Source: a virus (lineage: Duplodnaviria; Heunggongvirae; Uroviricota; Caudoviricetes). From it: DNA of 39,939 nt. How positions within the stretch are numbered: position 1 is the stretch's first letter; every line of letters begins with the position of its first letter. Of this stretch, positions 1,667-39,939 are shown in pieces. Location of the stretch: IMG/VR virus record IMGVR_UViG_2671180758_000025; one strand, written 5' to 3'. Both the position numbers and the translations under genes were made by a program. The notes beneath the pieces were generated by a model. The model was not told the DNA's origin, made no database searches, and saw nothing but the letters and a program-made list of their open reading frames with translations.

Positions 1667-1694
1667 AAACCTGCCGTAGCAGGTTCTCTTTCTC
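1660..1694. terminator. Putative bidirectional terminator between the cargo gene and ogr
   Basis: AACCTGC / CGTA / GCAGGTT hairpin (1668-1685) flanked by a T-rich tract on each strand (TTTTATTC on the minus strand after the ogr stop). Confidence 0.4.
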
Positions 1695-1911
1695 AAAAAT
1701 TCATATGCCCCTGACCACCTGGCAATGGATGTGGAGGAGCAGTAGCAATCAGTGCGGGTGTCACAATAAACCGGACCACTGTTTCATGGGTAACAAAAGT
1801 GCTCCCGCAGTTAATATTTTGGCACTGGCAGTAACGCTCTTTGGTGCTTTCAGTTACTTGAAAACTGCTCCTTGTGTGTGCCGCATGACCACACTTTGGA
1901 CAATTCATCAT
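1693..1911 (-). CDS. ogr: Late-gene activator Ogr (zinc-finger)
   Basis: Translation MMNCPKCGHAAHTRSSF...ERYCQCQNINCGSTF has the Ogr/Delta Cys4 pattern; start placed at the internal ATGATG preceded by AGGGA. The supplied ORF extends to 1956. Confidence 0.85.
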   Translation of the reverse strand: MMNCPKCGHAAHTRSSFQVTESTKERYCQCQNINCGSTFVTHETVVRFIVTPALIATAPPHPLPGGQGHMNF

Positions 1912-1979
1912 ATCCAGATCCCTACCTTTGCTATCAGAATCATTGTAATGATACACAAAATACCAATATTGAGAACACT

Positions 1980-3080: not shown

Positions 3081-3562
3081 GACAGCAGCCCTCCCACCGT
3101 TTTACTGATATCGCTTAAAGCAGATGTTGCCGTTTCCTGCAGATTATTCAGTTGCGCACTGAGATCACCGAACATATCGGACAGGGATTCATCCACTCGT
3201 TTGAGCGACAGGGTGAACTCAATCCGGCGCGGCATACCGTCGCGGAAAAACTCCGTTTTAGTCTGATTCAGTCCCTCAATCACATACATGCCGTAAATCG
3301 TGCCGCTGCCTTCAATCAGGGGCCATGCTTTCCCCTGTTCTGCCATCTGCTCCAGTGCCAGCAACGACAGCCTGCCGCCTGTTATCTCCGGCATAAGAAC
3401 GCCAGAAAGCGTCAGCATGTCGTTATCCGGTCCCAGAAACTGCGTTGACGGGCGTCGGTTAACCCGGCTGTTTGCCGCATGTCGCCAGCTGCGTTGATAC
3501 TGCAGTTCCTGATACGGAACGGTGCGCAGCATAAACACGTACAATCCCAGCACCATCATCAT
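3077..3562 (-). CDS. U: Tail protein U (P2 gpU homolog)
   Basis: 161-aa ORF between T and D with 4-nt overlaps on both sides. Confidence 0.88.
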   Translation of the reverse strand: MMMVLGLYVFMLRTVPYQELQYQRSWRHAANSRVNRRPSTQFLGPDNDMLTLSGVLMPEITGGRLSLLALEQMAEQGKAWPLIEGSGTIYGMYVIEGLNQTKTEFFRDGMPRRIEFTLSLKRVDESLSDMFGDLSAQLNNLQETATSALSDISKTVGGLLS

Positions 3563-6500
3563 GCGTCGTATCCCCCCTGATCGCTGTAGTTACTCCTGGC
3601 TTTTGCCTTCAGCCTGCGTTCACGTTCATCAAGCTGGCGTGCCACCTCCCGCGCAATATCCTGCGCACTTTGTCCTGGCTGCGTCTGAATGATGATCTGC
3701 GTCGGTGCCTCAATCCGTTGAACGAGCGGCACAGTGGCTGCGCGACTCACAATTGCTTCTCCACCTTTCGCGGGAAGTGCCAAAGGGTGCAACGGTGGAA
3801 GCTCTGCTGGCGCGGCAGCAACGCCCATCATTCCGGCAACAACGGCAGCCAGTGCAGCTGTATTTCTCCGGCTGGTCACATTTGCCGGGCCGTTAACAAT
3901 TTCCGGCCCGTTTTCACCGACGATGCCAAACTGCCCGCGCGGGATATACCCGCCGCTGTCATACAACCCCGCAAAGCCATATCCCCATGACGGAAAACCA
4001 CCCGATGTCATCATCACTTTACCGTCTGCATTCACCGTCGCAGGTTGCTGACGCGTCACGCTTTCCGGCAGTTTTGCCTTTGCGGCTTCTTTACTGACAA
4101 TGCCGAGTTTTTCCAGCAACCAGGATACGCCGGATTTGAGGGAGTCCAGCGGATGCATAACCATATTCAGCCCTTCCGCCAGCGCCTCCCCGAATCGTCG
4201 CCCCATTTCCGCTGCGCTCTGCAGTTCGGCAGAAGTCGACTTAACGGGTGTCAGCAGATCAGTAAACCAGCCCCACAACGCCTGCACTTTATCACCAATC
4301 CACTGGAACACAGGCTTAAGTGGTTCGAACGCGGCACTGACGGGACCTGCCGCTGCTTTGAATCCCTCCACCACACCACCGAGAAACGCGGTGATGGGTT
4401 GCCAGTATTTCCAGACAACCAGCGCCACACCCGCCAGTGCAGTAACCACAAGACCTATCGGACTGAGCAGAGCACCTAACAGACCAGACACGGCATACAG
4501 GGCAACGCGCAGCATCACCAGCGGACCGGATGCCAGTACTCGTAGCACCGCGCCTGCGGCAGTCAGCCCGCCGCGTAGTGCTGCCAGTGGATTCATAAAC
4601 ATCACAGCAACAGCACGTAAACCGGATAATCCAGACCGCAAAAGTGCAACCGGCGCACCTGCTACAGTTTTCAGGACATTTCCCGTCAGTGATGCCGTGC
4701 GGCGCAAAGACGACAACGGCGCAGTAAGTAAACCCGCTGCGCTGCCCGTTGAAGCAAGCCCGCGTCGCTGCAGTGCAAGTGGTGCGCCAGCCAGCCAGGA
4801 CAACGCGCTGCTGGTTCGTGTTACTGCTGCCGTAACGGAAGGTAACGTTTTGATACCCAGCACAGAGAATCCCAGACGGATCACTGCCAGCGGCCCCAGC
4901 ACTGCAGCCAGCGCCACCGCTAAGGTGCCGAGGCCTACGGTAACCGCAGCCACCACAGCGGCTACTTTCATCAGTGTGCCTGTCAGTTCCGGGTTAGCTT
5001 CCACCCAGCGGCGCAACGCCCCCGTGATGCTTTTCACCGTGTACAGAATATCCATCAGCGGCTGGCGCAGCGTTTCGCCCAGGCTGCTGAAGGTGTTCTG
5101 CGCTCCGGTTTTGACCAGCAACCACTGAGCAGAAAGTGAGTCTTTGTTGATGTCGGATTCTTTCTGCATGGAACCGAGCGCATCATTGCCCGCAGTCAGT
5201 TTTAGCTGGCGCTGCAGTTCCGGCAGGTTGTTTGCCAGTTTCGCCGCGTCATCGCCAAACTCTTTACCAAACAACATGGTCATGGCAGACAGGCGCTTAT
5301 CCTGCGGCAGTGCGTTCACCTTCTCCAGCACACGCTGGATAGTTCCCATCGCATCCTTCGTCATCTGCTTTTCAATCACTTCAGGATTGAGCTTCAGCAG
5401 ATTCATTCCTTCAAAGAAACTCTTGCTTTGCATGGTGGCAATGGACAATTCACGCACCATCGCGTTTGCTGCACTGGCTGCAACCTCTGGCGCAGCACCC
5501 AGTGTCAGGAAGGTGGAACCCAGCGCCGCCGCTTTACGATAATCCAGACGGTCAGCCACACCGCCCAGGCGTTGCATGACATCAATGATGTCCGCCCCTT
5601 TCGACATGGCGTTATCATCCAGATAGTTCAGCGCATCACCGAGCTGTTCAATATTGCGGGTAGGTATTTTGTAGAGCTGGGCGATTTTCCCCAGACTTTC
5701 TGACAGTTCATCCGCTGGCAGCTCAAAGGCTGTTGCCGCCTTTGCCGCCGTGCTGGCGAAGGCCAGCAGGTCACGTTTCTGGTCTTCCCAGCTGTCGTCA
5801 GGGTTTGCGACGTTCATGCGCGCCCCACCTTCAACCAGTGCGGCGAAGTCCACAGCACCGTTTTCCATCGGCAACTGTTCGCTGGCAGCCTTGATGGCAT
5901 CCTGCATTTCATAAAAACGCGCAGTGCGATTGCCATTATCGTCACGCAGACCATTGACCTGCTTTGCCACACCTTTCATGGCATCTTCCATGTTGGTATA
6001 GCTTTTTACTGCCGCCATCACTGGTGCGCCCATTGCCAGCCCTGCAGCCGTGGTGGTGGCTCCGGCACCTGCAATCCGATCCCTTACTTCAAGACGCCTG
6101 GCGTAAGCCCCCCGGGCGGCGTGCATTTTTCGCTGTTGCTCCCCGACACGTCGTAACCTCGCTTCCTGCTCAGAAAGCTGCCTGTTATAACGCATCGTTT
6201 CACGGGTAATGCGGGCCGTCGCACTGGCGCCATCATTAGCTGAAATACCAGCACGATAAAGTTCTGCACGCACAAGCGCCGTCTGCTGCTGCAGCTTTTT
6301 CTGGCGTTCTTCCAGGCGCTGAACAGCCAGCCGTTGACGGCCCATAGCAACAACCTGACGTTGCGAAGGCGGCCCCATCGCTCCCAGTTCCTGACTGAGC
6401 AAATTTGCACGCTGGCGGGCATAGTTCAGCCTGTCGCCTAATTTCTGATTTTCTGCCTGCAGCTTTCGGAAGCTGTCCAGACTGCTCCCGGCCTGATCAA

Positions 6501-6636: not shown

Positions 6637-7065
6637 CGTTGGCCCCGCTTCTCTGAATCGCTTTATACCGCCATTCCAGCACTTCGGTCAGCGGCATAAC
6701 GTCAGTAACGGATGGCGGCCAGTGAAAAATGGTGGCGATATCTGCCACCAGATCGTCAACCGTCAGGCTGTCGGTAAACCGGCAAGCACCGACTTCTTCA
6801 ACAAAAAAGTGACAACCTCAACCGACATGGCAGTGAGATCTGCCGGGTCCATCTCTGCAATTTCCTGTGCAGTCAGTGCCGGACTGGAGATGCGGGGGAT
6901 CACGGTCATCATCGCGTTTACATCCATATCCATAATGGCCTGCAGGCGTGTACCGCGCAGCGCACCGGACTGCGGTTTACGCAGCACAATTTCGGTGATT
7001 TCTGTTTTACCGCGCTTGATGGGGGTATCCAGTTGAATGGTCTTTTCAGTCTGCTTATCGCTCAT
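6629..7065 (-). CDS. E+E' tail chaperone made by programmed -1 frameshift (slip at 6808-6802)
   Basis: After a -1 slip at TTTTTTG the -1 frame stays open for 59 codons and stops at TGA 6631-6629, overlapping the T start codon (6636-6634). Total span 437 nt, i.e. 3n-1. Confidence 0.75.
6763..7065 (-). CDS. E: Tail assembly chaperone E (P2 gpE homolog)
   Basis: 100-aa ORF containing the slippery heptamer T-TTT-TTG near its 3' end. Confidence 0.88.
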   Translation of the reverse strand: MSDKQTEKTIQLDTPIKRGKTEITEIVLRKPQSGALRGTRLQAIMDMDVNAMMTVIPRISSPALTAQEIAEMDPADLTAMSVEVVTFLLKKSVLAGLPTA

Positions 7066-7119
7066 TTTGCTGTCCTGTCAATTGGGTTCTGGCGCGGTAT
7101 TCCGCGCCGTTCAGATATA

Positions 7120-7635
7120 TCAGAGGCCGAGGGCGTTGCGGTGCGCTTCCATCAGGTCCACACCGTCCACAATTTCCACCATGTTGATAAGGTCCACTTC
7201 ATAGAGCACCTCACCATTGATGGTCAGCTTCGCGTAGCTGTTGGTACTGGTCACTTTGGTGGTGTTGCTTTCGCCCGTCTTCCACTCGCCGGAATCCACT
7301 TCTTTGTGACGTCCACGCACGACAAGCTCCACGGCCTGCACTTCCCCGGTATCGTCACGCTGAATAGAGCCAGTAAAGCGCAGCTGGATGCCATCCACCG
7401 TGGCTTTACCCATCTGTTTAAACAGCAGCAATTCAGTACCACCAATGGAAAATTCTGTGTCCAGCGCACTGTCATCAAGCCCCAGATCCACATCCACCGC
7501 ACCCGGCATTCCGCCGCCGCGATACTTCTCATATTTGCGGGTAAATTTCGGCAGCGTCAGCGACTCAACGATCCCCTGCCAGTTGTTCCCGTCGTTAAAC
7601 AGGTTCAGGTGTTTTAATTTGCGTGGTAAAGCCAT
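7120..7635 (-). CDS. FII: Tail tube protein (P2 gpFII homolog)
   Basis: 171-aa ORF directly downstream of the sheath gene; translation recognised as FII family. Confidence 0.9.
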   Translation of the reverse strand: MALPRKLKHLNLFNDGNNWQGIVESLTLPKFTRKYEKYRGGGMPGAVDVDLGLDDSALDTEFSIGGTELLLFKQMGKATVDGIQLRFTGSIQRDDTGEVQAVELVVRGRHKEVDSGEWKTGESNTTKVTSTNSYAKLTINGEVLYEVDLINMVEIVDGVDLMEAHRNALGL

Positions 7636-7644
7636 GTTGTCCCC

Positions 7645-8817
7645 TTACGCGCTGACCTGGCTGGCGAAATTCACCAGGTACTGATCGGTGATGCGCTGAC
7701 GCAGCATCAGGTTTTCAAGTGGCGGCACTGGCGTGTAGTCGTAGTCGATGGTGAGTTTTCCGGCTTTCAGCGTGTCTTTGTCGTTCACCGACTCATCCAG
7801 CCAGCAATCACCACCAATGAGATAGCCCTGACTGACCAGGCTGCGCATTTTGGCGCGGATACCTTCGATAATGTCGCGGGCCAGCGACGGGTTAAGCGGT
7901 TTATCCACCGCCCACATGTGTGCTTCTGCCATCGTGTCCATCAGCACCTGCGCCGTGCGGGTGTAGTTTTCGAAGGCAAAGAGCGGGTCATCACTCAGGC
8001 AGCGGGAACCCCAGAAGCGGAAACCGTCTTTACGCACAAGCGTGGTGACGTCGTTCTGGTTCAGCAGACCTGCATCGGTTGCCGGGTCCTGCAGATCCCA
8101 GAACACATCTGCAGAAATTCCGGTGACACCGTTCACGCCCACGTTGGACAGGCTTTTGTGCCATCCGGTCTGCTCGTCAATTTTGGCGCGCAGACCAAGC
8201 GCACGGGCGGTGGCATATGCCGTTGCTTCGGCATTCAGCACCGTGTCCCAGCCAGTAAAGTCAGGCCAGATCAGCATCCCTTCGCGCTGGCTGAAGTTTT
8301 CGCGGTAAGTGATCGCCTCCTGCACTGTCTTGCAGCCATACGCTGACAGGTAAGCAAATCCACGCAGGCTTTGCGCCACGCTCAGCAACTCAGTAGCTAC
8401 CGCCTTGGTGTCGTGGCCTGGCACGCCGAGAATGCGCGGTTTAACGCCGAGCTGTGACTGGGCAGATAACAGGGCTTTCATACCTGTTTTTTTACCTTCA
8501 GCAGTCACTGCGCCGATGATATTGGTCGTGGTTTCGTCTTCCGTTTCACCCTGCGGCACACGCACAACAATGGTCACGGGTTTTGCCTGGTCAGCGATGG
8601 CATCCAGCGAACGGGCCAGAGTACCGGACTCACCCGCTTTACCGCTGGCAGTCAGCACATCAGTGATCAGCACTGGTTTATTAAGAGGAAACATTTTTGC
8701 ATCGGCATCATCGCCCGTGCAGACCATACCCACGATGGCGGTGCTCACCGTGGTAATGGATCGGGTGCCTTCGTTGACTTCAACAACGCGCACCCCGTGG
8801 TGGTAATCCTGAGCCAT
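7645..8817 (-). CDS. FI: Tail sheath protein (P2 gpFI homolog)
   Basis: 390-aa ORF; translation recognised as contractile sheath; first gene after a TGT-N12-ACA box. Confidence 0.92.
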
Positions 8818-8892
8818 AAGGCAGTCTCTCCGGTAGTAGAGGGGGTCTGCCTATGTTCTGGTTGATACGAGCAGGATGCACGTTATGTGGTT

Positions 8893-8910
8893 TGTATGAA
8901 AAATGGCACA
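8893..8910. promoter_or_regulatory. Ogr-type activator box (TGT-N12-ACA) of the F operon late promoter
   Basis: TGTATGAAAAATGGCACA, centred about 85 bp upstream of the FI start codon. Confidence 0.55.
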
Positions 8911-8949
8911 ACGGCGGATACAGGAATCCCCGCAGACGCGGGGATGTAT

Positions 8950-9384
8950 TCAGACTTCTGGTGATAAAGGCCAGACTATATCCGGGGCATCACTTACATT
9001 AATATTTTCAAGTAACTCAAGATAATCCAGCATCGCATTAAATCTGGTTGTCTCCATTTCGTTCAGCCTGCCAAGCTGTAATTTTGATGGCCATTGTTTT
9101 TCATTAATCAGGTTGTTAGCCTCATTAATGCGCATCTGTTTCATCATTTCTGCCTGTTCCACCTGTTCCTCATGGGTCAATGGTGGACGTTCTTCCCATG
9201 ATGGCTGGTTATCAGTGCCTGCAACCATTTTGTACCCTTCCCGATAACCAAGATAAAACTCCTGATAGACTGCATCACTTACCTCAATACAGTCATCCGG
9301 CCACGCATCGAGAGCATCGTAATAATCAGATTTCAGTTCACTGTTATAAAATGCATTTCTTGATGGACTGTAAAAATAACTCAT
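8950..9384 (-). CDS. Tail fibre assembly protein (Tfa family)
   Basis: C-terminus ...NVSDAPDIVWPLSPEV matches the Tfa C-terminal motif. Start placed at the ATG that overlaps the tail-fibre stop (ATGA); the supplied ORF extends to 9417. Confidence 0.75.
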   Translation of the reverse strand: MSYFYSPSRNAFYNSELKSDYYDALDAWPDDCIEVSDAVYQEFYLGYREGYKMVAGTDNQPSWEERPPLTHEEQVEQAEMMKQMRINEANNLINEKQWPSKLQLGRLNEMETTRFNAMLDYLELLENINVSDAPDIVWPLSPEV

Positions 9385-11114
9385 CAGACCCCCTCCGCAA
9401 TAAACCCAATATTCCATCCACCGTTATCTCCGGTGATGCTCAGAGTAAAGCCAGTTGCAGTAATAGCTGTAATGGCGACACCCTCAACACTCCCACCGTG
9501 TGACGAACGGAAAACGGGGATCACGTACCAGCACTGACGGGCAAATGGTGTCGGAAAATTCACCTGATACTCTTTATTCACCACACCAGTTGCCCCGGAA
9601 AAATAACTGTTAAAAAACTGCTTCAGCACACCGCCAGTTATTCGGTGATAATTGCTGCCAAATGAAAATTCATCTTCACAAACACCCCGACGCCATAGTG
9701 TTGTATTGTCTTTAACCGTATCAGAGCCGCTGAAACGGTGATACATTTCCCCTGCTCCGGTGATGAAAATCTGCGCGCGTCTGTTCTTGTTATACGCAGC
9801 CTGAAAACCTGCACCATTCGATGGCACTTCATCTGCATTACCTGAATATGCAAGAAACTGTGAAACCTCACCCATTTCGTAGTTATTATTGCTACCGATT
9901 CCGTATGCTCCCTGTTGCAGAGCACTTTCAGCCTTATCAACCGTCGGTTTAAGTCCCAGATTCTGAATAAACAAAGTCGGGTCAGGAATATCAGCACCAT
10001 TGCGGTCCTTTGCCAGTCTCGCGCTGGCGTTGTCCATCGCAATTTTTACCGCTTTCAATGTCGCCGCAACATTTTCTGACACGCTGTTTACATCGTTCCC
10101 CAGTTGCACCATTCCTTTAACACTCACTGATGCTTCTGGATAATGTGCACTGGTGAACACCTGATTCCACGGTGTTTCATCATCGGCAATTTTCGATAAC
10201 ATGCTGAATCGACAGTACATCTTGCCATCATTAGCGACATAAATCTGTGCACGTCGATTGTCGTTGTAACAGGCCTGGAAACCAGCACCATGTGTTGGCA
10301 CTTCTGGATAGCCGACAGCTGTACCATAAGCAAAAAATTGCGATTTGGTTCCCATGGTTTTCAGATAAGCCAGGCCAATTCCATAATCTCCTGGCTGAAT
10401 CGCTGATGCAGCTTTATCAACAGTCGTTTTCAATCCCAGATTCTGAACAAACAGTGCCGGATTGGGAATATCAGAACCATTGCGGTCTTTTGCCAGTCTG
10501 GCGCTGGCATTATCCATCGCTATTTTCACTGCTTTTGGCGTTGCAGCGACTGTTTCATCATTGCTTTCCACACCGCTATACAGACGTACAAATCCCTTTT
10601 CTGTCAAAGACGCAGAAGGATGGAGGCGCGATTGCTCATGAATTTCTATTTGTTGATCTACATAATGACGGGTTGCCAGCACGACAGCAGGGTCGATTTT
10701 CAGGGTGATATTATCCGTACTGCTGGTAATCAGCACCATGCGCACGGTCTGGGTGCGCCCGCTGCCTTCAGCCAGTTGTGGCTTATAGCTTTCCGGGCAG
10801 TTGCCCACGGCAATCAATGCCCCGGACTCATCAAACAGGCCCACTTCACGTATCCACCAACCGCCCTCGTTTTCTGGGATCACCTGTTCGGCAATAATCT
10901 GGCTGCTGTTCTGCGGGTCGATATAGAGCATATTCAGCGCAGCCCGGCGTTTCTCATTTACCAATGCTGTCTGCTTTGCGTCCGGCGTTGGCAATGTTCC
11001 GCCGCCATCGCCGACCGCCATATGGGTAATTTTTAAAGGCACACCGAGCGCGGCGGCGCTGGCAAGTTTCGCCGCGCCAATATCCGTCAGCAGGGTATAA
11101 AATTTTGTGCTCAT
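9384..11114 (-). CDS. H: Tail fibre protein (P2 gpH homolog) with an internal tandem duplication
   Basis: 576-aa ORF; N-terminus MSTKFYTLLTDIGAAKLA... is gpH-like. Two ~120-aa repeat units (ETVAATPKAVKIAMDNASARLAKDRNG...) lie 480 nt apart. Confidence 0.9.
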   Translation of the reverse strand: MSTKFYTLLTDIGAAKLASAAALGVPLKITHMAVGDGGGTLPTPDAKQTALVNEKRRAALNMLYIDPQNSSQIIAEQVIPENEGGWWIREVGLFDESGALIAVGNCPESYKPQLAEGSGRTQTVRMVLITSSTDNITLKIDPAVVLATRHYVDQQIEIHEQSRLHPSASLTEKGFVRLYSGVESNDETVAATPKAVKIAMDNASARLAKDRNGSDIPNPALFVQNLGLKTTVDKAASAIQPGDYGIGLAYLKTMGTKSQFFAYGTAVGYPEVPTHGAGFQACYNDNRRAQIYVANDGKMYCRFSMLSKIADDETPWNQVFTSAHYPEASVSVKGMVQLGNDVNSVSENVAATLKAVKIAMDNASARLAKDRNGADIPDPTLFIQNLGLKPTVDKAESALQQGAYGIGSNNNYEMGEVSQFLAYSGNADEVPSNGAGFQAAYNKNRRAQIFITGAGEMYHRFSGSDTVKDNTTLWRRGVCEDEFSFGSNYHRITGGVLKQFFNSYFSGATGVVNKEYQVNFPTPFARQCWYVIPVFRSSHGGSVEGVAITAITATGFTLSITGDNGGWNIGFIAEGV

Positions 11115-11716
11115 GGATTCACTCTCATTGTGTCAATAACATGGACCGCCCCACCTTCATGCGCGGTGCCGCCGGAAATAATTGTTTCGTTGATATACGG
11201 ATAGATCGTGATTTCTTCGCCAAGATAGCTGGCGGCCCCCACCCAATGCGGACCGCTGGTCTGCAGATTGATGGACATGCCGATCATGTGACGGCTACAT
11301 GGTTTGGCATCGCTTATCAGCCGCTCAAGTTCCAGATAGGTATCTTCAGTGATGCCCTGGTCCTGCACGCCGATATCCACACGAAACGTGCCCGGTGCCT
11401 CTCCGGTCTGCCACCACTCAATAATGCGGATCAGAAAGCCGAACGGCTCCACCACCCGCCGCACGGCACTGGTGGTCCCTTTATGCTGATGAATATAAAA
11501 AGCATCCTTCACCACCTGGCGCTTGACGCTTTCTGTCCAGCCTTCGTCCCAGCGATCCACAGAGAACGCCCAGGCGAGATAAGGCAGGAAGCTGACCGGG
11601 CAGGTAGCCGGATTCCACAAGTCACGCAGCGGCACCTGCAGATCAGAAATCCCGCTACAGGTCTGCGCCAGTCGGCGCTCCAGTGAAGTTGACCCCGATG
11701 GCAGCAGACTATTCAT
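11111..11716 (-). CDS. I: Baseplate protein I (P2 gpI homolog)
   Basis: 201-aa ORF; ATGA overlap with the H start; translation recognised as gpI family. Confidence 0.88.
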   Translation of the reverse strand: MNSLLPSGSTSLERRLAQTCSGISDLQVPLRDLWNPATCPVSFLPYLAWAFSVDRWDEGWTESVKRQVVKDAFYIHQHKGTTSAVRRVVEPFGFLIRIIEWWQTGEAPGTFRVDIGVQDQGITEDTYLELERLISDAKPCSRHMIGMSINLQTSGPHWVGAASYLGEEITIYPYINETIISGGTAHEGGAVHVIDTMRVNP

Positions 11717-12617
11717 CCGTTCCCCCGTTGGTCACGCTCCACTCCGTACATGATGCCGCCTGCGTTTTGTTCAAAACCACATCCGCCAGCGGCGAAGCCA
11801 GCTCCACACGCTGCACACCCTCAACATGCAGGGCGGCAAAGATGGCGCTACGGCGAATATCCCGACCAAGACGCGTCTGACTGGCGATGTACTTCTGCAG
11901 GCTGGCTTTTGCCGCTGCCATTACCGGCTCTGCTTCCGGTCCCGGATAGAGAAAAATGGTGGCTTCCACGCGATACGGGATGATTTCTGCGCTGCGAACC
12001 GTCAGACGGTCAGCCACCGGGCGGACGTTCTCACTGTTCAGAGCTTTTTCCACCACGTCCAGCAGGTCTTTTTCTGCAGTTCCATCGCCTTCGCGGCTAA
12101 GGACAGTCAGCACCACCTCTGCAGGTGCCGGGCTGGTTGCACTGGCATCCGCCACCCGACCGTCGGCGCTTCGGGCATGAAATTCATAAGCTGCAGTTGG
12201 CCCCGCAACAGAAAGCCCTTCAAAGGCTGCAGGCACACGCAGGCGTAACGCTTCATCGCTTTCCATCACAGCTGCAACGGGCGGCACAGCATCATTATCA
12301 GCAGGCGTCACCGTCAGGCGTGTCACGTTGTAGTTGGCAGCGAGCTGGTCAAGATCGCCGCCCATCGCGTAAGCCACCATCACCGCCTGCGCGGCTTCGT
12401 TAATGCGCTGGCGCAGAAGCAACTCACGGTAAGCGTTCTCCTGCAACAATTTAGTGACGGGTTCAGATTCCAGTTCCAGCGTTCGGATCACGGCTTCCTG
12501 CTCATCTTTCGGATGAAGCGCCACAAATTCTGCCTTGCGTTCGGCAAGCAGCGTCTCAAAGTCCGGCACATCCACAATCTGCGGTGCAGGCAACTGCGAA
12601 AGGTCAATCACTGCCAT
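11709..12617 (-). CDS. J: Baseplate protein J (P2 gpJ homolog)
   Basis: Start placed at internal ATG giving MAVIDLSQLPAP..., matching the gpJ N-terminus; the supplied ORF extends to 12656. Confidence 0.88.
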   Translation of the reverse strand: MAVIDLSQLPAPQIVDVPDFETLLAERKAEFVALHPKDEQEAVIRTLELESEPVTKLLQENAYRELLLRQRINEAAQAVMVAYAMGGDLDQLAANYNVTRLTVTPADNDAVPPVAAVMESDEALRLRVPAAFEGLSVAGPTAAYEFHARSADGRVADASATSPAPAEVVLTVLSREGDGTAEKDLLDVVEKALNSENVRPVADRLTVRSAEIIPYRVEATIFLYPGPEAEPVMAAAKASLQKYIASQTRLGRDIRRSAIFAALHVEGVQRVELASPLADVVLNKTQAASCTEWSVTNGGTDE

Positions 12618-12963
12618 TCTCTGCTCCTGTTGATACGGAAAGGGACACAGGCACACCGTTATTCCGCCGCCCGGTCAGCTCCACCACCATAGAACCGTCA
12701 AAGTTGCTGTTGATGGTGATGGAATCCAGCGTCAGCCGTGGCTCCCAGCGACTCAGCGCCACATACACTGCCGACATGACCTGCAGGCGTAATGCCGGAT
12801 TTTGTGGCTGATCTATTAAAACCGACAGGAGGGAACCATATTCCCGGCGGGCAATACGGCTACCCTGCGGTGTCAGCAGAATGTCCCGCACCGACTGGCG
12901 CAGATGATCAATATCAGTAATGACTTTGCCGCTGGTATTGTTCATCCCGCTATAAAGCGTCAT
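12604..12963 (-). CDS. W: Baseplate protein W (P2 gpW homolog)
   Basis: 119-aa ORF between V and J with short overlaps. Confidence 0.88.
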   Translation of the reverse strand: MTLYSGMNNTSGKVITDIDHLRQSVRDILLTPQGSRIARREYGSLLSVLIDQPQNPALRLQVMSAVYVALSRWEPRLTLDSITINSNFDGSMVVELTGRRNNGVPVSLSVSTGAENGSD

Positions 12964-31031: not shown

Positions 31032-32060
31032 ATGACGATCAGAAAACAGCCGAACGGAAAGTGGTTATGTGAATGCTACCCAAACGGGAGAGATGGCAAA
31101 CGCGTACGCAAACAATTTGCGACGAAAGGCGAAGCCATTGCGTTTGAGAATTTCACCATGGATGAGGTAAACAAGAAACCTTGGCTGGGAGAAAAGGAAG
31201 ATCGGCGACCACTGTCAGAAGTGATTGAGCAATGGTATTCCCTGTACGGTCAGACACTCGCTGACCCTAAGCGATTAATGGCTAAGCTAAAAATCATTTG
31301 TAATGGGCTTGGCGATCCCATCGCTTCTGAATTGACAGCAGGTGATTTCACAAAGTACCGGGAAGCCAGATTAAAAGGTGAGATCAAAAACGAAGATGGC
31401 GTGCTCATGTCACCGGTTAAGCCCCGCACGGTAAACCTTGAACAACGCAATCTGTCATCGGTGTTCGGTACATTGAAAAAACTAGGGCACTGGTCCGCAC
31501 CAAACCCACTGGCAGGGCTTCCAACCTTCAAAATTGCTGAAGGTGAATTGGCTTTTCTTTCCACGGACGAAATCAAACGCCTGCTTAATGCCTGCGCCGA
31601 ATCTCAAAACACCAGCCTACTAATGATTGCAAAAATATGCCTGGCTACTGGTGCGCGATGGAGTGAAGCAGAAAACCTACAGGGCCACCAAATATCGAAA
31701 TACCGAATTACTTATACAAAGACCAAAGGCAAGAAAAACAGAACAGTACCCATATCACAGGAGCTGTATGACGAACTCCCAAAGAACAGAGGGAAGTTAT
31801 TCTCACCATGTAGAAAAGCCTTTGAACGAGCAGTAAAACGGGCAGGTATAGATCTACCGGAGGGCCAATGCACCCACGTACTGCGCCATACATTCGCTAG
31901 CCATTTTATGATGAACGGCGGAAACATACTCGTGTTGCGCGACATCCTTGGTCACTCGGATATAAAAATGACTATGGTTTATGCACATTTTGCACCTGAT
32001 CATTTAGAGGATGCAGTATCAAAAAACCCTTTATATAGATTAAAATGGACCACACCATGA
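31032..32060 (+). CDS. int: Tyrosine integrase (P2/186 type)
   Basis: 342-aa ORF with the C-terminal catalytic signature ...HVLRHTFASHFMMNGGNILVLRDILGHSDIKMTMVYAHF. Confidence 0.92.
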   Translation: MTIRKQPNGKWLCECYPNGRDGKRVRKQFATKGEAIAFENFTMDEVNKKPWLGEKEDRRPLSEVIEQWYSLYGQTLADPKRLMAKLKIICNGLGDPIASELTAGDFTKYREARLKGEIKNEDGVLMSPVKPRTVNLEQRNLSSVFGTLKKLGHWSAPNPLAGLPTFKIAEGELAFLSTDEIKRLLNACAESQNTSLLMIAKICLATGARWSEAENLQGHQISKYRITYTKTKGKKNRTVPISQELYDELPKNRGKLFSPCRKAFERAVKRAGIDLPEGQCTHVLRHTFASHFMMNGGNILVLRDILGHSDIKMTMVYAHFAPDHLEDAVSKNPLYRLKWTTP

Positions 32061-33076
32061 CTCAAGAATTCGTAATTAGCTATATAAAAAAACCAGAAAC
32101 ATCTACTTTCCTTATAATTTTTTATTTAATATATCTATTTATTGAATACACAAAAAACAAAAATAATAATTATTTCGAAATGACTGAGGAAAGGCTAACA
32201 AAACAAAATTTATTTAAACAATCCATCAGAATACCTATTATCTCATCCTTATACTTCGGTATATTCTCATGGATGGGACACTCTCCTCAATTTGATGCTG
32301 ATGGATTTTCAAACTTCATTGAAATAAGCAAGTTGCCTATCGCTCTTCTTTCCCTTTCGATACCCTTTGTAGCTATAGTCGCTAACATTCACAGAACAAT
32401 ACAAACGGAAAATCAAATTAGGAAAACACAGCAACAGATAGATCTAGTGACTGAGAAAAACCGCAGTGATGCTTACTACGCTCACCTCAAGAATTATTCG
32501 GATATGTTTAAAACGTTACCGTCATTTACCCTTTCTCGTCGAGATAATACAACTTTCGAAAAAGACACAATTAAACTATCTGTAGATCATACCTACTCAT
32601 TATATAAAAAAATATTCACAAAATCCTCAATCTCTACTGGATATAATAATGAAGTTGATAAATCATTCCTTGAAAAATTAGAAAATATATATAACAGCAT
32701 TGGGCATGAAATAGCAAGATACAATCAGCTTTACCCAAAACAAGTTAACATATCTAATTTAGAGAACATTGAAGCACAAGTGGTATGGCTGTGTAGAGAA
32801 CTAGGAGTTAATTATGAAAGAGAAGTCAACAAATTTGAGATTTTTGATCCGATATCAAACTTAGGAATAGAAACATCATTTTCAGATGAAAAAGAAATAA
32901 AAGAAATGCTTCGTGGATTACGAGATATATTGATATCTCTGTACATGCTAATTGATCAAAATACAATTATTTTCCAAGCAACTGCCAATAACGGTGATTT
33001 TTTAGCCAATTATGCTTACGATCCAGATTTTTTGATTTTTAAGGGGATCTTACCTATAGATTCTCAAGGTAAATAA
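32057..33076 (+). CDS. Hypothetical AT-rich membrane protein between int and the att core
   Basis: Three predicted TM segments in the first ~115 residues, then a ~220-aa soluble region of unknown family. Start chosen at the ATG overlapping the int stop (ATGA); an upstream ATG at 32045 is also possible. Confidence 0.6.
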   Translation: MTQEFVISYIKKPETSTFLIIFYLIYLFIEYTKNKNNNYFEMTEERLTKQNLFKQSIRIPIISSLYFGIFSWMGHSPQFDADGFSNFIEISKLPIALLSLSIPFVAIVANIHRTIQTENQIRKTQQQIDLVTEKNRSDAYYAHLKNYSDMFKTLPSFTLSRRDNTTFEKDTIKLSVDHTYSLYKKIFTKSSISTGYNNEVDKSFLEKLENIYNSIGHEIARYNQLYPKQVNISNLENIEAQVVWLCRELGVNYEREVNKFEIFDPISNLGIETSFSDEKEIKEMLRGLRDILISLYMLIDQNTIIFQATANNGDFLANYAYDPDFLIFKGILPIDSQGK

Positions 33077-33190: not shown

Positions 33191-33235
33191 ATGTAGGAAT
33201 TTCGGACGCGGGTTCAACTCCCGCCAGCTCCACCA
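33191..33235. repeat. att core, copy 2 (junction between the prophage and the second island)
   Basis: Exact 45-bp copy of ssrA positions 1016-1060. Confidence 0.85.
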
Positions 33236-33400
33236 CTTTTTAGTTGTTTGAAGTTCAATGAAGTCTACTAAGCCCACACAGCACAAGCTCTGCGGGCTTT
33301 TTTACGTCTATTGTCGTCCAGTGAGAATTGCTGAGAACTACGAGTTATGGCACCCTGAATGGGACCCATTAAGAAGGGTCCAAAAACCGAGGGTCCCAAA

Positions 33401-34630
33401 ATGGCAAAAATCGCTAAGAAGCTCACTGACACTGAAATCAAAAGCACCAAGCCAGCCGATAAAGAAATCAACTTGTTTGACGGTGATGGTCTGATTCTAC
33501 GAATCGCTCCTTTGGCGAAAGGAGGCAAGAAAAATTGGTATTTCAGGTATGCAGTACCAGTGAGCAAGAAAAGAACCAAAATGAGCCTTGGGACATATCC
33601 TCACCTTACCCTTGCAAGAGCCAGAGCCTTACGTGATGAATATCTCTCCTTTCTGGCAAATGGTGTTGATCCCCAAATCCATAACAACGATAAGGCGAAG
33701 GCATTAAAGAGTGCTACTGAGCACACTCTCCAAGCCGTAGCGCGGAAATGGTTAGATGAGAAGGTAAAGACATCAGGTATCTCACAAGACCATGCAGCAG
33801 ACATCTGGCGCAGCTTAGAGAGAAATGTCTTTCCCGGTCTGGGTAATGTCCCTATCAATGAGATCCGACCTAAGCTCTTAAAACAACACCTTGATCCTAT
33901 TGAGCAACGAGGCGTATTGGAAACTCTACGCCGTATCATTTCACGTCTGAATGAAATCTTCCGGTGGGCAGCTACTGAAGAACTTATTGAGTTCAACCCG
34001 GCTGACAACCTTGGTCAAAGATTCAGTAAACCAAAAAAGCAAAATATGCCTGCCCTTCCCCCAAGCGAATTGCCAAGGTTTATGGAATCTTTGACGAATG
34101 CGTCAATCCGGTTGGAAACACGTATGCTAATTGAATGGCAATTGTTGACATGGGTTCGTCCGGGTGAAGCCGTTCGCGCAAGGTGGTCTGATATTGATAC
34201 AACCAACAGCATTTGGAACATTCCTGCTGATTTCATGAAAATGAAAAAGCTTCACAAAGTTCCTTTGAGTAAAGAAGCTTTGCGCATCCTTGAATTAATG
34301 AAATCAATAAGTGGGCATAGAGAATGGGTTTTCCCCAGCATAAAAGCGCCTCTTAATCATATGCATGAACAAACAGCCAACGCAGCTATCATCCGAATGG
34401 GGTTCGGAGGCGAGCTTGTAGCTCACGGTATGCGTTCTATTGCACGAACAGCGGCAGAGGAGTCTGGTAAATTCAGAGCTGAAGTTCTTGAGGCAGCGCT
34501 TGCCCACTCGAAAAAAGATGAAATTATCGCAGCATACAATCGTGCAGAATATCTGATAGAGCGACAGAGTTTGATGCAATGGTGGAGTGATTACGTTCAA
34601 GCTCAAAGATCAAATGCTCTGGTAGCCTAA
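33401..34630 (+). CDS. intA: P4-type tyrosine integrase (IntA-like, CP4-57 family)
   Basis: Start at MAKIAKKLTDTEIKSTKP... with GAGGG upstream; typical P4-family N-terminus; 165 bp from the att core. The supplied ORF begins at 33359. Confidence 0.88.
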   Translation: MAKIAKKLTDTEIKSTKPADKEINLFDGDGLILRIAPLAKGGKKNWYFRYAVPVSKKRTKMSLGTYPHLTLARARALRDEYLSFLANGVDPQIHNNDKAKALKSATEHTLQAVARKWLDEKVKTSGISQDHAADIWRSLERNVFPGLGNVPINEIRPKLLKQHLDPIEQRGVLETLRRIISRLNEIFRWAATEELIEFNPADNLGQRFSKPKKQNMPALPPSELPRFMESLTNASIRLETRMLIEWQLLTWVRPGEAVRARWSDIDTTNSIWNIPADFMKMKKLHKVPLSKEALRILELMKSISGHREWVFPSIKAPLNHMHEQTANAAIIRMGFGGELVAHGMRSIARTAAEESGKFRAEVLEAALAHSKKDEIIAAYNRAEYLIERQSLMQWWSDYVQAQRSNALVA

Positions 34631-34668
34631 GTATCAGAATAGCTAATATAATCCTGAAGGTAAAGAAA

Positions 34669-35085
34669 ATGGAAACCCTATTCAAAGTTTTTGAAAAATT
34701 TAGTTCCAGACCACTTTTTTTTATTTTTTTCGGACTCTCACTTTGTGAATTTTTTCAGAAACAATCTGTTCTGATGAATCCATCAGCAGATAACATCGCG
34801 AAATTATTCGCAGCCATGATATTAGTTGTTTTTTTTACTTGGGGATTTGAATGGCTAATCTTCAAGTTCAATGTAAACCTTGAACCTCATGATCAAGGCG
34901 ATATTGGACCAACAATTGGAACGGCTACTTTAGCTGTATACTTAGTTTATGCCTTTCACTTTCTCAGTGAAAATCCTGAAGCATTAAATTTAAAGTTATT
35001 AACTAACTCTGGCTTTATATACAGCACAACTCTATTATTATTCTCATTAGAATGCATGAAGCTTAGAAGACTTAAACAAAAATAA
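34669..35085 (+). CDS. Small hypothetical membrane protein
   Basis: 138-aa ORF with 3-4 hydrophobic segments; AT-rich; convergent with the kinase/receiver pair. Confidence 0.45.
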   Translation: METLFKVFEKFSSRPLFFIFFGLSLCEFFQKQSVLMNPSADNIAKLFAAMILVVFFTWGFEWLIFKFNVNLEPHDQGDIGPTIGTATLAVYLVYAFHFLSENPEALNLKLLTNSGFIYSTTLLLFSLECMKLRRLKQK

Positions 35086-35156
35086 ACAACATCATTGTGA
35101 TGATAAATATAAAATAGGCATGGCGAAAAAAAATCACCACGCCTAAAATATAATAA

Positions 35157-36905
35157 TTATGGTAGCATCATTGATACATAATCCACACCAATCCTTGAGC
35201 TATACTGAGACGCTATAGCCTGATATCTTTCTGCATAACCAGTTCTCAGTTGAGATTTAAGTTTGAGTCGGACAGGAACATTTTGCACGTTGCCATCCAT
35301 ATTACTTAAAAACACGGCAGAAATAATATTTTTTTCTTCGCCATCAACTGTTGTTCCATGATTCAACACCACCATATAATCAACAACAGGAAGCGTTTTA
35401 TCCCCTTCGAAAATAGAGAGATATTTTCTTTGATTTTTATGCATTACATATATATATTTCGAATGTTCAGCAAATGGCAATGCTTTACTCTGACTGGCGT
35501 TAAAAAGCTCCAGAACTTTAATGAGCCTGTGCGGACTTAATCTTACATGGTGAGGGTCGTTACCCTGAGTAGGAACCAAATCACATGCCGCAGATACACA
35601 TAAATACCATTTGTTCGACTCTGTATCAAAGAAAATAGTGCCAGTAGAAATATGACCATCTTCAAAATTCTTTGAAGACAAATTCATATTTAAAGCATGA
35701 TACATTTCGTGATAAGTATCATTATTTGATGGCAGATCCATTTTTGAAGAGCAATATTGGAGCAATGCAGCAACTCCGCTGTTAGCGTATTCATTTGAAT
35801 AGCTATCAAAAACACTTTTGATAAATTCATCCAGCGTATTATTATTTTTAAGTCTTTGATAAAGCTCTTCTGATAAATTACCAAATACAAAGTCAATATT
35901 TCTACATCTAATATCAGGCGAGTCTGATTTTAATATCTCATTTAACCACGCAGCTTGACCGTAATGATCGTTAGCCAAATGATTTACAAAAGATAAAGCC
36001 TCAGCTTCGATTGCATTCTGAATTTCAGATTTTATTAACTGATAATAAGATGGTTTCCATTCAATGAGAGAATCATTGAGAGTTTGCCAAATCCTATCTC
36101 CATCGTTTTCATGATCATCTTGAACCTTATGAAATAGGGAGACAAAGATATTACCACATTGAATCCATTTTACTCCGCTTTCATCACCCCGAATGACATT
36201 GCCAGATGTGTTGCTAGAAATAATTGCATTTCTAGACACAGCATATTCTGCAATCATTTTTGCAATGAAGTTTTTATCCTTTTGATCCTCCAACACAGCA
36301 TCATCATGTATTAATCTTTTAATTCTTCTACAAGGCTTACTGTCTTTAATATAGGCTATTGTTTCATCTCTTGTGAGAGCTTTATTACCATTATCATTTA
36401 AGTTCGGTAATACAACGTCTTCCCAATAACTTTGGACATCTTCATTATCGTAGTCAATGATCAAGCTGTTGATATCCAGAGCACCTTTGAGAGTCGATGA
36501 TATCTGCATCCAAACCGTTTCTAAATTCTCTCTAGTATATATTACAATCATATTTAAATGATCGGAGTCTTTCAAATCTTGTAATAGTTTAAGTGTTTTA
36601 TCAGGTGCATTATTATCAAGATGATAATCTACAATAATAAGATCTGATTTTCTAATCCGATCCACATCGAAATTAACAGAACCATTGTCAACATCACAAA
36701 TCATATTTTTAGATTGAAAAAAGCTCTCAAGAGTAGCGGCTCGTTTAGATGAGTCAATTTTGTTGTAGTCTAAATCAACTTCGTTATTCAACGCCCTGAT
36801 TGATTCAGAATACGTCAGAAAATCGTCATCAATCATGACAACGGAACGAATTGCATTTTCGCAGAAAGTTTTCTGGACAAGAGAATTATAATTTGCCACT
36901 GTCAT
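35157..36905 (-). CDS. Receiver (REC)-domain protein with large unrecognised C-terminal domain
   Basis: N-terminus has CheY-like landmarks (VVMIDDD, LIIVDYHL, MIVIYT); about 450 aa follow with no motif I can name. Start chosen 1 nt after the kinase stop, with GGAG upstream; an ATG at 36923 is also possible. Confidence 0.7.
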   Translation of the reverse strand: MTVANYNSLVQKTFCENAIRSVVMIDDDFLTYSESIRALNNEVDLDYNKIDSSKRAATLESFFQSKNMICDVDNGSVNFDVDRIRKSDLIIVDYHLDNNAPDKTLKLLQDLKDSDHLNMIVIYTRENLETVWMQISSTLKGALDINSLIIDYDNEDVQSYWEDVVLPNLNDNGNKALTRDETIAYIKDSKPCRRIKRLIHDDAVLEDQKDKNFIAKMIAEYAVSRNAIISSNTSGNVIRGDESGVKWIQCGNIFVSLFHKVQDDHENDGDRIWQTLNDSLIEWKPSYYQLIKSEIQNAIEAEALSFVNHLANDHYGQAAWLNEILKSDSPDIRCRNIDFVFGNLSEELYQRLKNNNTLDEFIKSVFDSYSNEYANSGVAALLQYCSSKMDLPSNNDTYHEMYHALNMNLSSKNFEDGHISTGTIFFDTESNKWYLCVSAACDLVPTQGNDPHHVRLSPHRLIKVLELFNASQSKALPFAEHSKYIYVMHKNQRKYLSIFEGDKTLPVVDYMVVLNHGTTVDGEEKNIISAVFLSNMDGNVQNVPVRLKLKSQLRTGYAERYQAIASQYSSRIGVDYVSMMLP

Positions 36906-36906
36906 A

Positions 36907-38625
36907 TTAGAACTCCACTCCATTGAACTGGATCACAAAATTAGCGCCATCTTTTATTAAATAGTTATCGCCTTCATCAGGTTCTGAATACCATATTTTA
37001 TGATGTGCAACAGCAAGGTTTTCTCGACATAGATACAGACCTACCCCATGTCCATTTGCTCTTTTGCTATAAAATAGTTCAAATAGTCGCGGGATATCAT
37101 CGGTATCAATTGCCGGACCAGAATTTGCTATGATAACCAAAGAATTCACAAAACCAATATTTATGAGCCTATTATTTGACAGACTGACCCAATACATTGC
37201 ATTGTTGATAATATTAGTAAAAACAGGATAGATCCTTGATGGTATATCTGTTATTGCGATTTGCTTAAACTCTTCACTAAATTCAATAGTTATTCGTTGC
37301 CGTTCGAAACGCTCCCCAAAGAACTTCAGGACATAATCCATGATATTTTTTCCAGTTATTCTCTGCCTGGATTGATAACCTGATATTTTCAAAGGTGATA
37401 AGAAACGTATTTGTTGAGTAAGCGATCTGTGAGCATTTAACGCCAATGAAAAACCAGGGTGTTCTTTTACAGAAGTAGGAAGAGAGTTTAGTCCTCTGGT
37501 TACCATAGAATCCATTTCTTCAAGTTCATGAGATATTATCTCAACACTAATACCTAACTGTGCAAGCGCGTTTAAACTTTTAGCTTTTTCTTCAAAATAT
37601 GAGCGTTCTTCTTCAGATAATGAGAATGCTGAATCTAAGTTTATACCTTCAAATAATCTATCGAGACCTTTTATTATTGATTGATATTTGAAAGTTAGGG
37701 TATCAACTGACTCAACATATAAACTATCGAGCAAATTAAACACATTTTCAATTTGTGAATCATTATCTATTGAATCAACAACTGATATAGTTTTAGCATA
37801 ATAATCACTTCGATCAACCTTTATTTCATCGGCCCATTTTTTTAAAAGAGAATGTATCTTCTCCTCTATCGTGTTATTAAACTTAGTTAGTTTAGAATTA
37901 ATAATACCTTGATTTTTTTCAAGGTGATTTTTCGCTGACAATGAAGGCTCAAGTTTATTTAATTCAGAATCAAGTTTATTAATTGCTAACTTCATTTGTA
38001 GAATATACGCAGAGAATTCATTAAATTTATCTCTGTAGTCTCTATATTTCTCTTCATACATTCCAAGTTTTGGAGGTTTGATAGGCGTTTTAATTTCACT
38101 GCGCAACGCATCTAAGTTTGTAAGATCACTGTCTATAATTTTAAGATAGTTTAAATCTAACGAACCATCAGTTTTATCAAGCTTAGTTTTCAGCCTTTTA
38201 ACAGCCTCCAAGGAAGCATCAAGAACTGGTGTCTGATTCTTCAAAGCTTCTGAAAAACTTTTTTGTGTTGATTTTCGAGCTTGTTGTTGAGCAGATTTTC
38301 TTAACTCTTTTTCACGCTTAACTTGTTCTAAAAGCTCTTTACGGTCATCAGAACGTGAACCAAAAAATCTATCAGCAAGTTCAGTTAACAAATTAGATAT
38401 AATAGTTTTCAGTTCTCTTGCAGCCTGGTTTCTTATGAATCCCTCTCTCCCCGACTTATCTTTCAGCTCTTTATTACTGGATTGAGTAATTCCAATATAA
38501 CCAAAAATCCTTCTATTAGACCAATAATATCGCCCTGCATTCCATGAACGTCTTTCTTCTATCTGGAAGAAATCATTATCTACTCGACCATAAGGTAATA
38601 CTCTCAAGCTATCCCTAAAAATCAT
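36907..38625 (-). CDS. Cytoplasmic histidine-kinase-like protein (HisKA + HATPase_c core); 5' end may be disrupted
   Basis: C-terminal third carries H-box-like ISHELEEM, N-box NIINNAMYW, G1-like ANSGPAID, F-box FELFYS and G2 GHGVGLYLC. No TM helices; Lys/Glu-rich coiled-coil N-terminal region. The frame stays open upstream to the IS3 end. Confidence 0.7.
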   Translation of the reverse strand: MIFRDSLRVLPYGRVDNDFFQIEERRSWNAGRYYWSNRRIFGYIGITQSSNKELKDKSGREGFIRNQAARELKTIISNLLTELADRFFGSRSDDRKELLEQVKREKELRKSAQQQARKSTQKSFSEALKNQTPVLDASLEAVKRLKTKLDKTDGSLDLNYLKIIDSDLTNLDALRSEIKTPIKPPKLGMYEEKYRDYRDKFNEFSAYILQMKLAINKLDSELNKLEPSLSAKNHLEKNQGIINSKLTKFNNTIEEKIHSLLKKWADEIKVDRSDYYAKTISVVDSIDNDSQIENVFNLLDSLYVESVDTLTFKYQSIIKGLDRLFEGINLDSAFSLSEEERSYFEEKAKSLNALAQLGISVEIISHELEEMDSMVTRGLNSLPTSVKEHPGFSLALNAHRSLTQQIRFLSPLKISGYQSRQRITGKNIMDYVLKFFGERFERQRITIEFSEEFKQIAITDIPSRIYPVFTNIINNAMYWVSLSNNRLINIGFVNSLVIIANSGPAIDTDDIPRLFELFYSKRANGHGVGLYLCRENLAVAHHKIWYSEPDEGDNYLIKDGANFVIQFNGVEF

Positions 38626-38776
38626 TAGTCCTGCATACTTTTTGGCCTTAAGATCAAAGTGGGAATGTTCACGTTCAGTATGTGATGTATTTTGTGAAAG
38701 GAATTCAAACGTTCCTATCTGAAGCTCAAATGGGCCGACCCCTGCGTGATCCTACCCACGTAATATGGACACAGGC

Positions 38777-39643
38777 CTAAGCGAGGTTCTTGTTTTCAAA
38801 TTGTTCCGGACTGAGGCCGCCACACCAACTGTGCCGCCGCCACCGATTGTAATCACATTCGATATAATTAAACACCGTTGCCCGCATTATTTCCCGGCTG
38901 ATAAAGTGTTCTCCATGGATACATTCCACTTTCAGCGAATGAAAGAAGCTTTCCACGCAGGCATTATCGTAGCAGCAACCTTTTGCGCTCATACTTCCAC
39001 GCAGATTATGCCGCTTCAGTTGCGCCTGATAATCTGCTGAACAGTACTGGCCTCCACGGTCCGTGTGAACGATAACGTTCCGGGGCCTCTTACGCCGCCA
39101 CAGCGCCATCTGCAGGGCATCGCAGGCCAGTTGCGCCGTCATGCGTGGCGACATTGACCAGCCAATAACGGCACGTGACCACAGGTCAATGACCACTGCC
39201 AGATACAGCCAGCCTTCATCTGTACGTAAGTACGTGATGTCTCCTGCCCACTTCTGGTTCGGGCCACTGGCGTAAAAATCCTGCTCCAACAGATTTTCTG
39301 ACACAGGCAGACCGTGTGCGCGGTAGCAGACCGGGCTGAACTTCCGGGAGGCCTTTGCCCTCAGTCCCTGACGGCGCAGGCTTGCCGCCACGGTTTTTAC
39401 GTTAAAGGGGTAACCCTGAGCACGCAGTTCATCCGTCAGGCGTGGGGCACCGTAACGCTGTTTTGACCGGGTAAAAGCCGCGAGGACAACGCTGTCGCAG
39501 TGTTGGCGGAACTGCTGACGCGTGCTTATCCTTGTCCGCCGCTGACACCACGTATACCAGCCGCCGCGGGCCACCCGGAGCACGCGGCACATTGCTTTGA
39601 TGCTGAACTCAGCCTGATGTTTTTCAATAAAGACATACTTCAT
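38777..39643 (-). CDS. insF: IS3 transposase OrfB (integrase core)
   Basis: 288-aa ORF recognised as IS3 InsF; normally expressed as an OrfAB fusion by -1 frameshift. Confidence 0.9.
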
Positions 39644-39939
39644 TTCAGGCGCTTCGCGAAGTATGTCGCGGCCTTTTGGAGGATAGCCAGCTCTTCATCC
39701 CGTTCTGCCAGCTGGCGTTTGAGACGTGCAATCTCGGTAGACATCTCCAGTTCACGTTCAGAAGACGTCTGCTGATTTTGCTGTTTACTGCGCCAGTTGT
39801 AGAGCTGTGATTCATACAGGCTGAGTTCACGGGCTGCGGCAGTAACACCGATGCGTTCAGCAAGCTTCAGGGCTTCACTGCGAAATTCAGGCGAATGCTG
39901 TTTACGGGGTTTTTTACTGGTTGATACTGTTTTTGTCAT
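39640..39939 (-). CDS. insE: IS3 transposase OrfA (HTH)
   Basis: 99-aa ORF recognised as IS3 InsE; its start codon is the last triplet of the window. Confidence 0.9.

Follow-up and report, generated by a model that had tools for sequence, protein, structure and literature searches.

At one end of the window (the whole stretch of DNA that was analysed, 39,939 nucleotides long) lies the ssrA tmRNA gene (698-1060), followed by a P2-like prophage (about 1180-33190) that carries a P2-family capsid, terminase, GPA replication protein, CI-type repressor and integrase, and that is integrated in tandem ahead of an island remnant. Between the prophage integrase and the att repeat of the island is a 343-aa open reading frame (32045-33076) with no Pfam match; PGAP labels a shorter call of it in another E. 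coli locus (L002) DUF4760, and it may be cargo of the prophage. A 46-bp copy of the ssrA 3' end (att; 33191..33236, plus strand), an exact repeat of window positions 1016-1061, bounds the 5.56-kb island remnant (33191-38746) on its proximal side. The remnant keeps a P4-type tyrosine integrase (33359..34630, plus strand; NCBIfam PRK09692, 440 bits), for which PGAP calls a 409-aa form; a conserved 138-aa hypothetical gene (34669..35085, plus strand), found in the same place in intact loci and without a match in Pfam, PADLOC or NCBIfam; an intact gene for a 582-aa Response_reg_2 protein (35157..36905, minus strand); and the 3' part of a kinase-like gene, with the Response_reg_2 gene starting 1 nt after the kinase stop. 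The Response_reg_2 protein consists of an N-terminal receiver domain and a C-terminal region of roughly 350 aa, and a sequence search of the PDB with it gave no matches. A cluster of 'partial' receiver proteins was considered as evidence of decay and rejected, its members being contig-end fragments. No methylase gene is present within 33191-38746, and the rest of the ssrA island is likewise absent.

The kinase-like open reading frame (36907..38625, minus strand), delimited from the ORF list, Pfam and homolog alignment, encodes 572 aa and is annotated 'ATP-binding protein'. Its product matches HATPase_c (PF02518) in the C-terminal part, at 44.2 bits against a cut-off of 26.4, and the DHp-like HEF_HK domain (PF19191) at 26.1 bits against a cut-off of 24.1. 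The H-E pair of HEF_HK (SHELEE), a conserved histidine and acidic residue, is invariant across an alignment of 7 homologs. By alignment, the 572 residues correspond to positions 417-988 of an intact 988-aa paraMORC-type histidine-kinase-like protein, for which a PDB sequence search with an intact homolog returned generic sensor-kinase matches only, in the HATPase_c region. The N-terminal HATPase_c_3 domain (paraMORC-type GHKL) of that protein is absent from the window copy, residues 1-376 having been deleted.

The last 1193 bp of the window (38747..39939, minus strand) are the right-hand part of an IS3 element that runs off the window end, recognized from its orfA/orfB domains and from PGAP annotation of identical loci, where it is labelled 'IS3-like element IS3 family transposase, programmed frameshift'. 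The two ORFs overlap: orfA (39939-39640) carries HTH_Tnp_1 and orfB (39643-38777) carries rve, rve_2 and HTH_21 in Pfam. The terminal repeat TGATCCTACCC begins at 38747 with the bases TGATCC. The left end lies outside the window and was read from locus L001, where it is ...GGGTAAGATCA at about 8005; taken together, the right end from the window and the left end from L001 fit the TG...CA inverted-repeat pattern. The element and the kinase remnant share a direction of transcription, and neither IS3 ORF is interrupted within the window. In L002 (6778-7940; E. coli E2865, with a junction identical to that of the window), the IS3 transposase is flagged as a pseudogene with an internal stop.

Upstream of the ATG at 38625, the kinase frame continues through 40 non-IS codons and a further 2 codons lying partly or wholly in IS3, and is closed by TAG at 38754-38752, inside the IS3 inverted repeat; its translation reads DHAGVGPFELQIGTFEFLSQNTSHTEREHSHFDLKAKKYAGL-M. 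A reading made earlier from the sequence alone (the sequence-only reading) had pointed out that the frame stays open for 40 codons up to the IS3 repeat at 38747 with no ATG, GTG or TTG, and that the ATG at 38625 is preceded by AGGA at 3 nt. Both observations were borne out. None of the three start codons occurs among the 42 upstream in-frame codons, the sole near-cognate codon being ATA at 38718, and the spacer between AGGA and ATG is CTA, a poor Shine-Dalgarno spacing. An open stretch of 42 codons has a chance probability of about 0.13 in random sequence by our own estimate, (61/64)^42, and a lower one in the AT-rich DNA found here. The frame is nonetheless more than a chance opening, because its 40 non-IS codons (38626-38745) are identical, by translation and alignment, to residues 377-416 of the intact 988-aa homologs. 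The interval 38626..38746 (minus strand) is thus leftover coding sequence without a start codon, made up of 40 codons and 1 nt of codon 376. As the remnant has no start codon of its own, gene callers choose the first internal ATG, that of Met417, and report 572 aa.

A protein search with the 614-aa extended frame, which includes the upstream open codons, returned 13 homologs from Salmonella, Klebsiella and Serratia (P0003-P0013 and others) with 98-99% identity over 100% of the query. These homologs are 988-991 aa long and have the extra N-terminal HATPase_c_3 domain (PF13589) of paraMORC-type GHKL. More distant homologs, at 61-89% identity, are mostly 975-998 aa, with a few shorter forms of about 715-752 aa and 572 aa. 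The DNA agrees with the protein alignment: in BLASTN, window positions 33192-38747 match the intact locus L003 (14681-9127) with 98.9% identity over 5556 bp, the homology beginning at 33192 and stopping exactly at the IS3 end, where window 38747 equals L003 9127. The breakpoint falls between nt 1126 and 1127 of the 2967-nt kinase gene and at 38746/38747 in the window, with a 1-nt ambiguity arising from base 38747, which is common to IS3 and the intact gene. Lost from the kinase gene are its first 376 codons (38%), including the entire paraMORC-type GHKL ATPase domain; the 3' 62% is retained and begins with Ala377.

The sequence-only reading had offered two alternatives, that the native N-terminus was gone or that the gene starts at 38625, and had proposed aligning IS-free homologs to choose between them. 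With that alignment in hand the first is upheld, since the homologs extend N-terminally (988-994 aa), the 40 upstream codons are those of the 988-aa proteins and DNA identity reaches the IS3 edge. The second falls away, the equivalent of 38625 being the internal Met417 in IS-free homologs of 988-994 aa; homologs neither start at this position nor differ from the window in the upstream frame. The kinase-like ORF is accordingly best regarded, with a probability of about 0.93, as a 5'-truncated remnant of a 988-aa gene that arose through an IS3-associated deletion.

The setting from which the remnant derives can be seen in the intact loci L003-L005, where the gene order is DNA_methylase (402 aa), the 988-aa kinase, Response_reg_2, the 138-aa gene and the integrase. 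The 402-aa C5 DNA methylase gene overlaps the kinase start in these loci, and the 582-aa Response_reg_2 gene begins 1 nt after the kinase stop; in L003 the three genes occupy 6812-12717. In L003 the P4-type integrase is next to ssrA/smpB, and a relaxase is found further upstream in both L003 and L004. The intact operon is best explained as a three-gene, restriction-modification-associated unit on a mobilisable island integrated at ssrA. When DNA of the methylase and the 5' part of the kinase gene was compared by megablast with 5426 complete E. coli genomes and with PLSDB plasmids, no match was obtained. PADLOC v2 does not cover the system: its models gave no match to the kinase and nothing beyond a weak, meaningless one to the receiver protein.

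The kinase remnant was found in 561 complete E. coli genomes, and in 483 of them it meets IS3 at the identical junction. Sequence identity among carriers is at least 99%, and one sequence variant of the remnant is recorded on at least 1000 contigs. The window ends within IS3, and the far flank of the element is known from other genomes with the identical near junction. In two of these, the far IS3 end adjoins an alpha-amylase gene annotated as a pseudogene ('missing N-terminus'), beyond which lie glaH, lhgO and gabD. By comparison with the IS-free E. coli locus, in which the amylase gene measures 2253 nt, about 1144 nt of its 5' end is missing in carriers, as are ileY and DNA on the ypjA side. 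The sequence-only reading had suggested looking for a 3-bp target duplication at the IS3 flanks, and L001 and L002 have none (GCG versus AGA). An IS-associated deletion is indicated by a single IS3 that lies between two unrelated genes, both truncated, with no target duplication, the arrangement known from IS-mediated deletion. Of the proposal that IS3 inserted into the coding region and removed the native N-terminus, the removal (376 codons) therefore stands, and a simple insertion does not, given the truncated amylase gene at the far flank and the lack of a duplication.

The upstream C5 methylase gene was removed by the same IS3-bounded deletion, which was either an adjacent deletion by intramolecular transposition or the product of recombination between two IS3 copies. 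On the favoured explanation, about 10% of the E. coli sequenced so far descend from the strain in which it arose, and it took out the DNA from kinase codon 376 through the methylase gene and the distal island to the middle of a chromosomal ygaQ-like alpha-amylase gene, leaving a single IS3 copy at the junction. Residues 377-988 were left with neither a promoter nor a start codon of their own. The deletion may have been tolerated because methylase and sensor were lost simultaneously. At the other IS3 end of the source strain, this model leads to the expectation of ...GGGTAAGATCA and then AGATAACATCTCTAAGG of the alpha-amylase remnant.

About 65-78 carrier genomes are without the exact kinase/IS3 junction. 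Three IS3-free carriers among them were inspected. In these the kinase remnant runs straight into the alpha-amylase remnant, the element having been lost through imprecise deletions of at least two kinds: the junction is CCCTGCG-CG-CATCTC in two and CCCTGC-GGGAAAACC in the third. The kinase 5' end is restored in none of the inspected IS3-free carriers. Such forms are secondary rather than ancestral, because less of the native amylase sequence (AGATAACATCTC...) is kept in them than in the IS3-bearing form. The three strains are E. coli O111:H2 08-3342, 2013C-4361 and 2011C-4251, with the junction at about 3115-3130 in L007 and L008 and at about 3118-3125 in L009.

The system is most likely inactive in these E. 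coli, as they lack both the N-terminal GHKL module and the methylase, each a conserved component of the family. Loss of the promoter-proximal methylase, of the native promoter and start codon, and of the entire N-terminal ATPase should disable it, and any residual expression would depend on read-out transcription from IS3 and on a poorly placed ribosome-binding site. Two outward promoter-like elements directed toward the remnant were located by motif position (38798..38872, minus strand), TTTAAT-15-TACAAT at 38872-38846 and TTGGTG...CAATTT at 38828-38798, both of which have been described for IS3 '3R(+)' (PMC12095673). The same study mapped a pause/termination site to the terminal 50 bp at the right end of IS3, and deleting these 50 bp raised reporter output about 1.9-fold (PMC12095673). 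A simple sigma-70 scan across the junction called no promoter-like site, and the two published elements were likewise not called; a simple scan for terminator-like sites between orfB and the ATG at 38625 found none. The arrangement resembles the mobile promoter role of IS3 reported by Charlier et al. (1982), as cited in PMC12095673, in that a right end with outward elements faces a downstream ORF, and differs in that read-out into the remnant is here a possibility suggested by sequence elements. The proposal of the sequence-only reading that the gene is now driven from the IS is thus possible.

The reading that fares best against an inactive remnant holds that the gene is truncated and not dead, with IS3 read-out yielding a 572-aa kinase core that forms a working two-gene module with the Response_reg_2 protein. 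In its favour, IS3 and the remnant share one orientation, nothing like a terminator was found between them, and the published outward elements are in place; the DHp histidine and HATPase_c domain are also retained. Almost every carrier has an uninterrupted remnant ORF, which is intact on at least 1000 contigs. Relative to the intact locus, the Response_reg_2 gene has 13 differences (12 synonymous and 1 non-synonymous) and the remnant 11 (5 synonymous and 6 non-synonymous), in each case too few to judge constraint or its relaxation; the counts were polarised with a K. pneumoniae outgroup, and most changes fall on the other lineage. The 12:1 ratio in the partner gene and the intact remnant ORF are compatible with continued constraint. 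Against this, the pause/termination site at the IS3 right end halves outward expression, the Shine-Dalgarno spacer is 3 nt, and some lineages have lost IS3 through sloppy deletions with no evident effect; moreover, with carriers at least 99% identical, integrity of the ORF may only reflect recency. Expression of a functional core is on balance unlikely.

A bolder form of the same idea, and a somewhat more doubtful one, is that the deletion created a new module, in which a sensor-less core (417-988) constitutively phosphorylates, or fails to phosphorylate, the Response_reg_2 protein and is retained for defence or stress physiology. [quoted passage not shown]

It is very improbable that the ATG at 38625 is a native start, i.e., that the gene encodes a short 'group 2' kinase of HEF_HK and HATPase_c architecture and that IS3 lies merely in its upstream intergenic region. 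The idea draws on the PGAP annotation of a 572-aa protein in hundreds of genomes, on the 'group 2' architecture described in PMC8011034, and on 572-aa entries, found by protein search at 82-84% identity, for Salmonella, Klebsiella, Yersinia, Morganella and Pectobacterium. It is contradicted by the identity of the 40 upstream codons to residues 377-416, by DNA homology that runs on to the IS3 edge, by the poor Shine-Dalgarno spacing and by the alignment, in which the Met417 position is occupied by Leu in the Acinetobacter homolog. The 572-aa entries that were checked proved, in addition, to be either a frameshift product or start mis-calls within intact 994-codon ORFs.

Those entries were accordingly rejected as a native short form in other species. 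The K. pneumoniae entry comes from a kinase gene that would be full-length but for a frameshift near residue 309. In CP141543.1 (L006, 4734-7719) the gene is thereby divided into one part of 314 aa, with HATPase_c_3, and one of 572 aa, which represents an independent inactivation or possibly a sequencing error. The Salmonella entries sit inside a completely open 994-codon ORF of which the first 422 codons are unannotated. In the two Salmonella enterica contigs examined, AAMKBH010000009.1 (L011, ORF at 2729-5719) and AAMORO010000065.1 (L012, ORF at 2247-5237), the ORF is annotated from the internal Met only, so that about 1.25 kb after the methylase gene is left unannotated, and the start called is that of the E. 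coli protein truncated by IS3. This abundant short form seems to influence start calls in other species, as in these two contigs.

That IS3 simply inserted and split the gene, leaving the 5' half and the methylase intact beyond its other end and outside the window, is hardly credible: simple insertion is the commonest IS event and the far flank of this particular copy is unseen, as the window stops inside IS3, but genomes with the identical junction have the truncated alpha-amylase pseudogene and then glaH at that flank, the 3-bp duplication is missing, and the 5' part and methylase occur in 0 of 5426 complete E. coli genomes.

The truncated gene belongs to a family that is already described, computationally rather than experimentally. 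The HEF_HK/Response_reg_2 family was defined by computation by Bellieny-Rabelo et al. (2021; PMC8011034), who found the HEF_HK and Response_reg_2 genes adjacent in 91.6% of 644 regions and HEF_HK regions enriched for C5 methylases and type II restriction-modification genes. In their classification, the predominant 'group 1' combines HATPase_c_3, HEF_HK and HATPase_c (174 of 222 unique HEF_HK proteins), and 'group 2', without HATPase_c_3 (34 of 222 sequences), is listed as a natural architecture; the paper makes no mention of truncation, IS elements or pseudogenes. The window resembles these pairs in having HEF_HK and HATPase_c beside an adjacent Response_reg_2 gene, and its near-identical intact loci show the 'group 1' architecture beside a C5 methylase. 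The window copy differs in being without HATPase_c_3 and the methylase, and its 'group 2' appearance is an artefact of truncation.

The lost domain can be placed among the paraMORC GHKL ATPases of restriction-modification systems (Iyer, Abhiman and Aravind 2008; PMC2292703), with which it shares linkage to a Dcm-type methylase. The HATPase_c_3 domain also weakly matches the N-terminus of the model for BbrUII/HgiDII restriction enzymes (E 1.5e-13, 50 bits against a cut-off of 550), which agrees with the picture of paraMORC proteins in restriction-modification (PMC2292703). Unlike in those proteins, the domain is here fused to a histidine-kinase core and not to a nuclease, and it is missing from the window copy.

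A literature search for an experimentally characterised equivalent found VcSduA/Shedu and Ambrosia. VcSduA/Shedu was rejected for its unrelated architecture. Ambrosia is an analogous, experimentally tested anti-phage system comprising an XRE regulator, an N6 methylase, a HATPase kinase, a REC-wHTH regulator and an HNH endonuclease (bioRxiv 10.1101/2025.09.30.679545). Compared by gene content, the two are alike in clustering a methylase with a HATPase-type kinase and a receiver protein. They differ in that the intact relatives here have a C5 and not an N6 methylase, that no XRE or HNH gene is found in the window or in the 99%-identical intact loci, and that the C-terminal region of the receiver protein has no wHTH match, whereas a wHTH is reported for AbrC. 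An 83%-identity Salmonella allele (L011, 8511-9386) has a gene for a ScoMcrA-type DNA-SBD + HNH_2 endonuclease beside the operon, which recalls the Ambrosia HNH; neither the 99%-identical loci nor the window has this gene. By analogy with Ambrosia, the intact system would most likely work as follows: the GHKL-kinase protein would sense a DNA-related signal, phosphotransfer would control an effector domain on the receiver protein, and the methylase would mark self DNA or belong to the effector logic.

In summary, what is new here is modest: a widespread E. coli 'ATP-binding protein' is a pseudogene remnant, and Salmonella annotations contain mis-called starts that agree with its short form. The annotation of this remnant as an intact 572-aa protein in hundreds of complete E. 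coli genomes is a misannotation, and in the sole paper on the family the remnant would count as 'group 2', a natural variant without HATPase_c_3. The value of the finding lies mainly in annotation and interpretation, as the biology is that of ordinary IS-mediated decay of a horizontally acquired island. If the deletion did create a new module, a rewired pair that does not need the methylase would be kept in about 10% of E. coli, and many of these are STEC O26/O103/O111. For the family itself, the methylase-kinase-receiver system would have to be cloned for defence testing from intact Serratia, Salmonella or Klebsiella loci, and not from E. coli.
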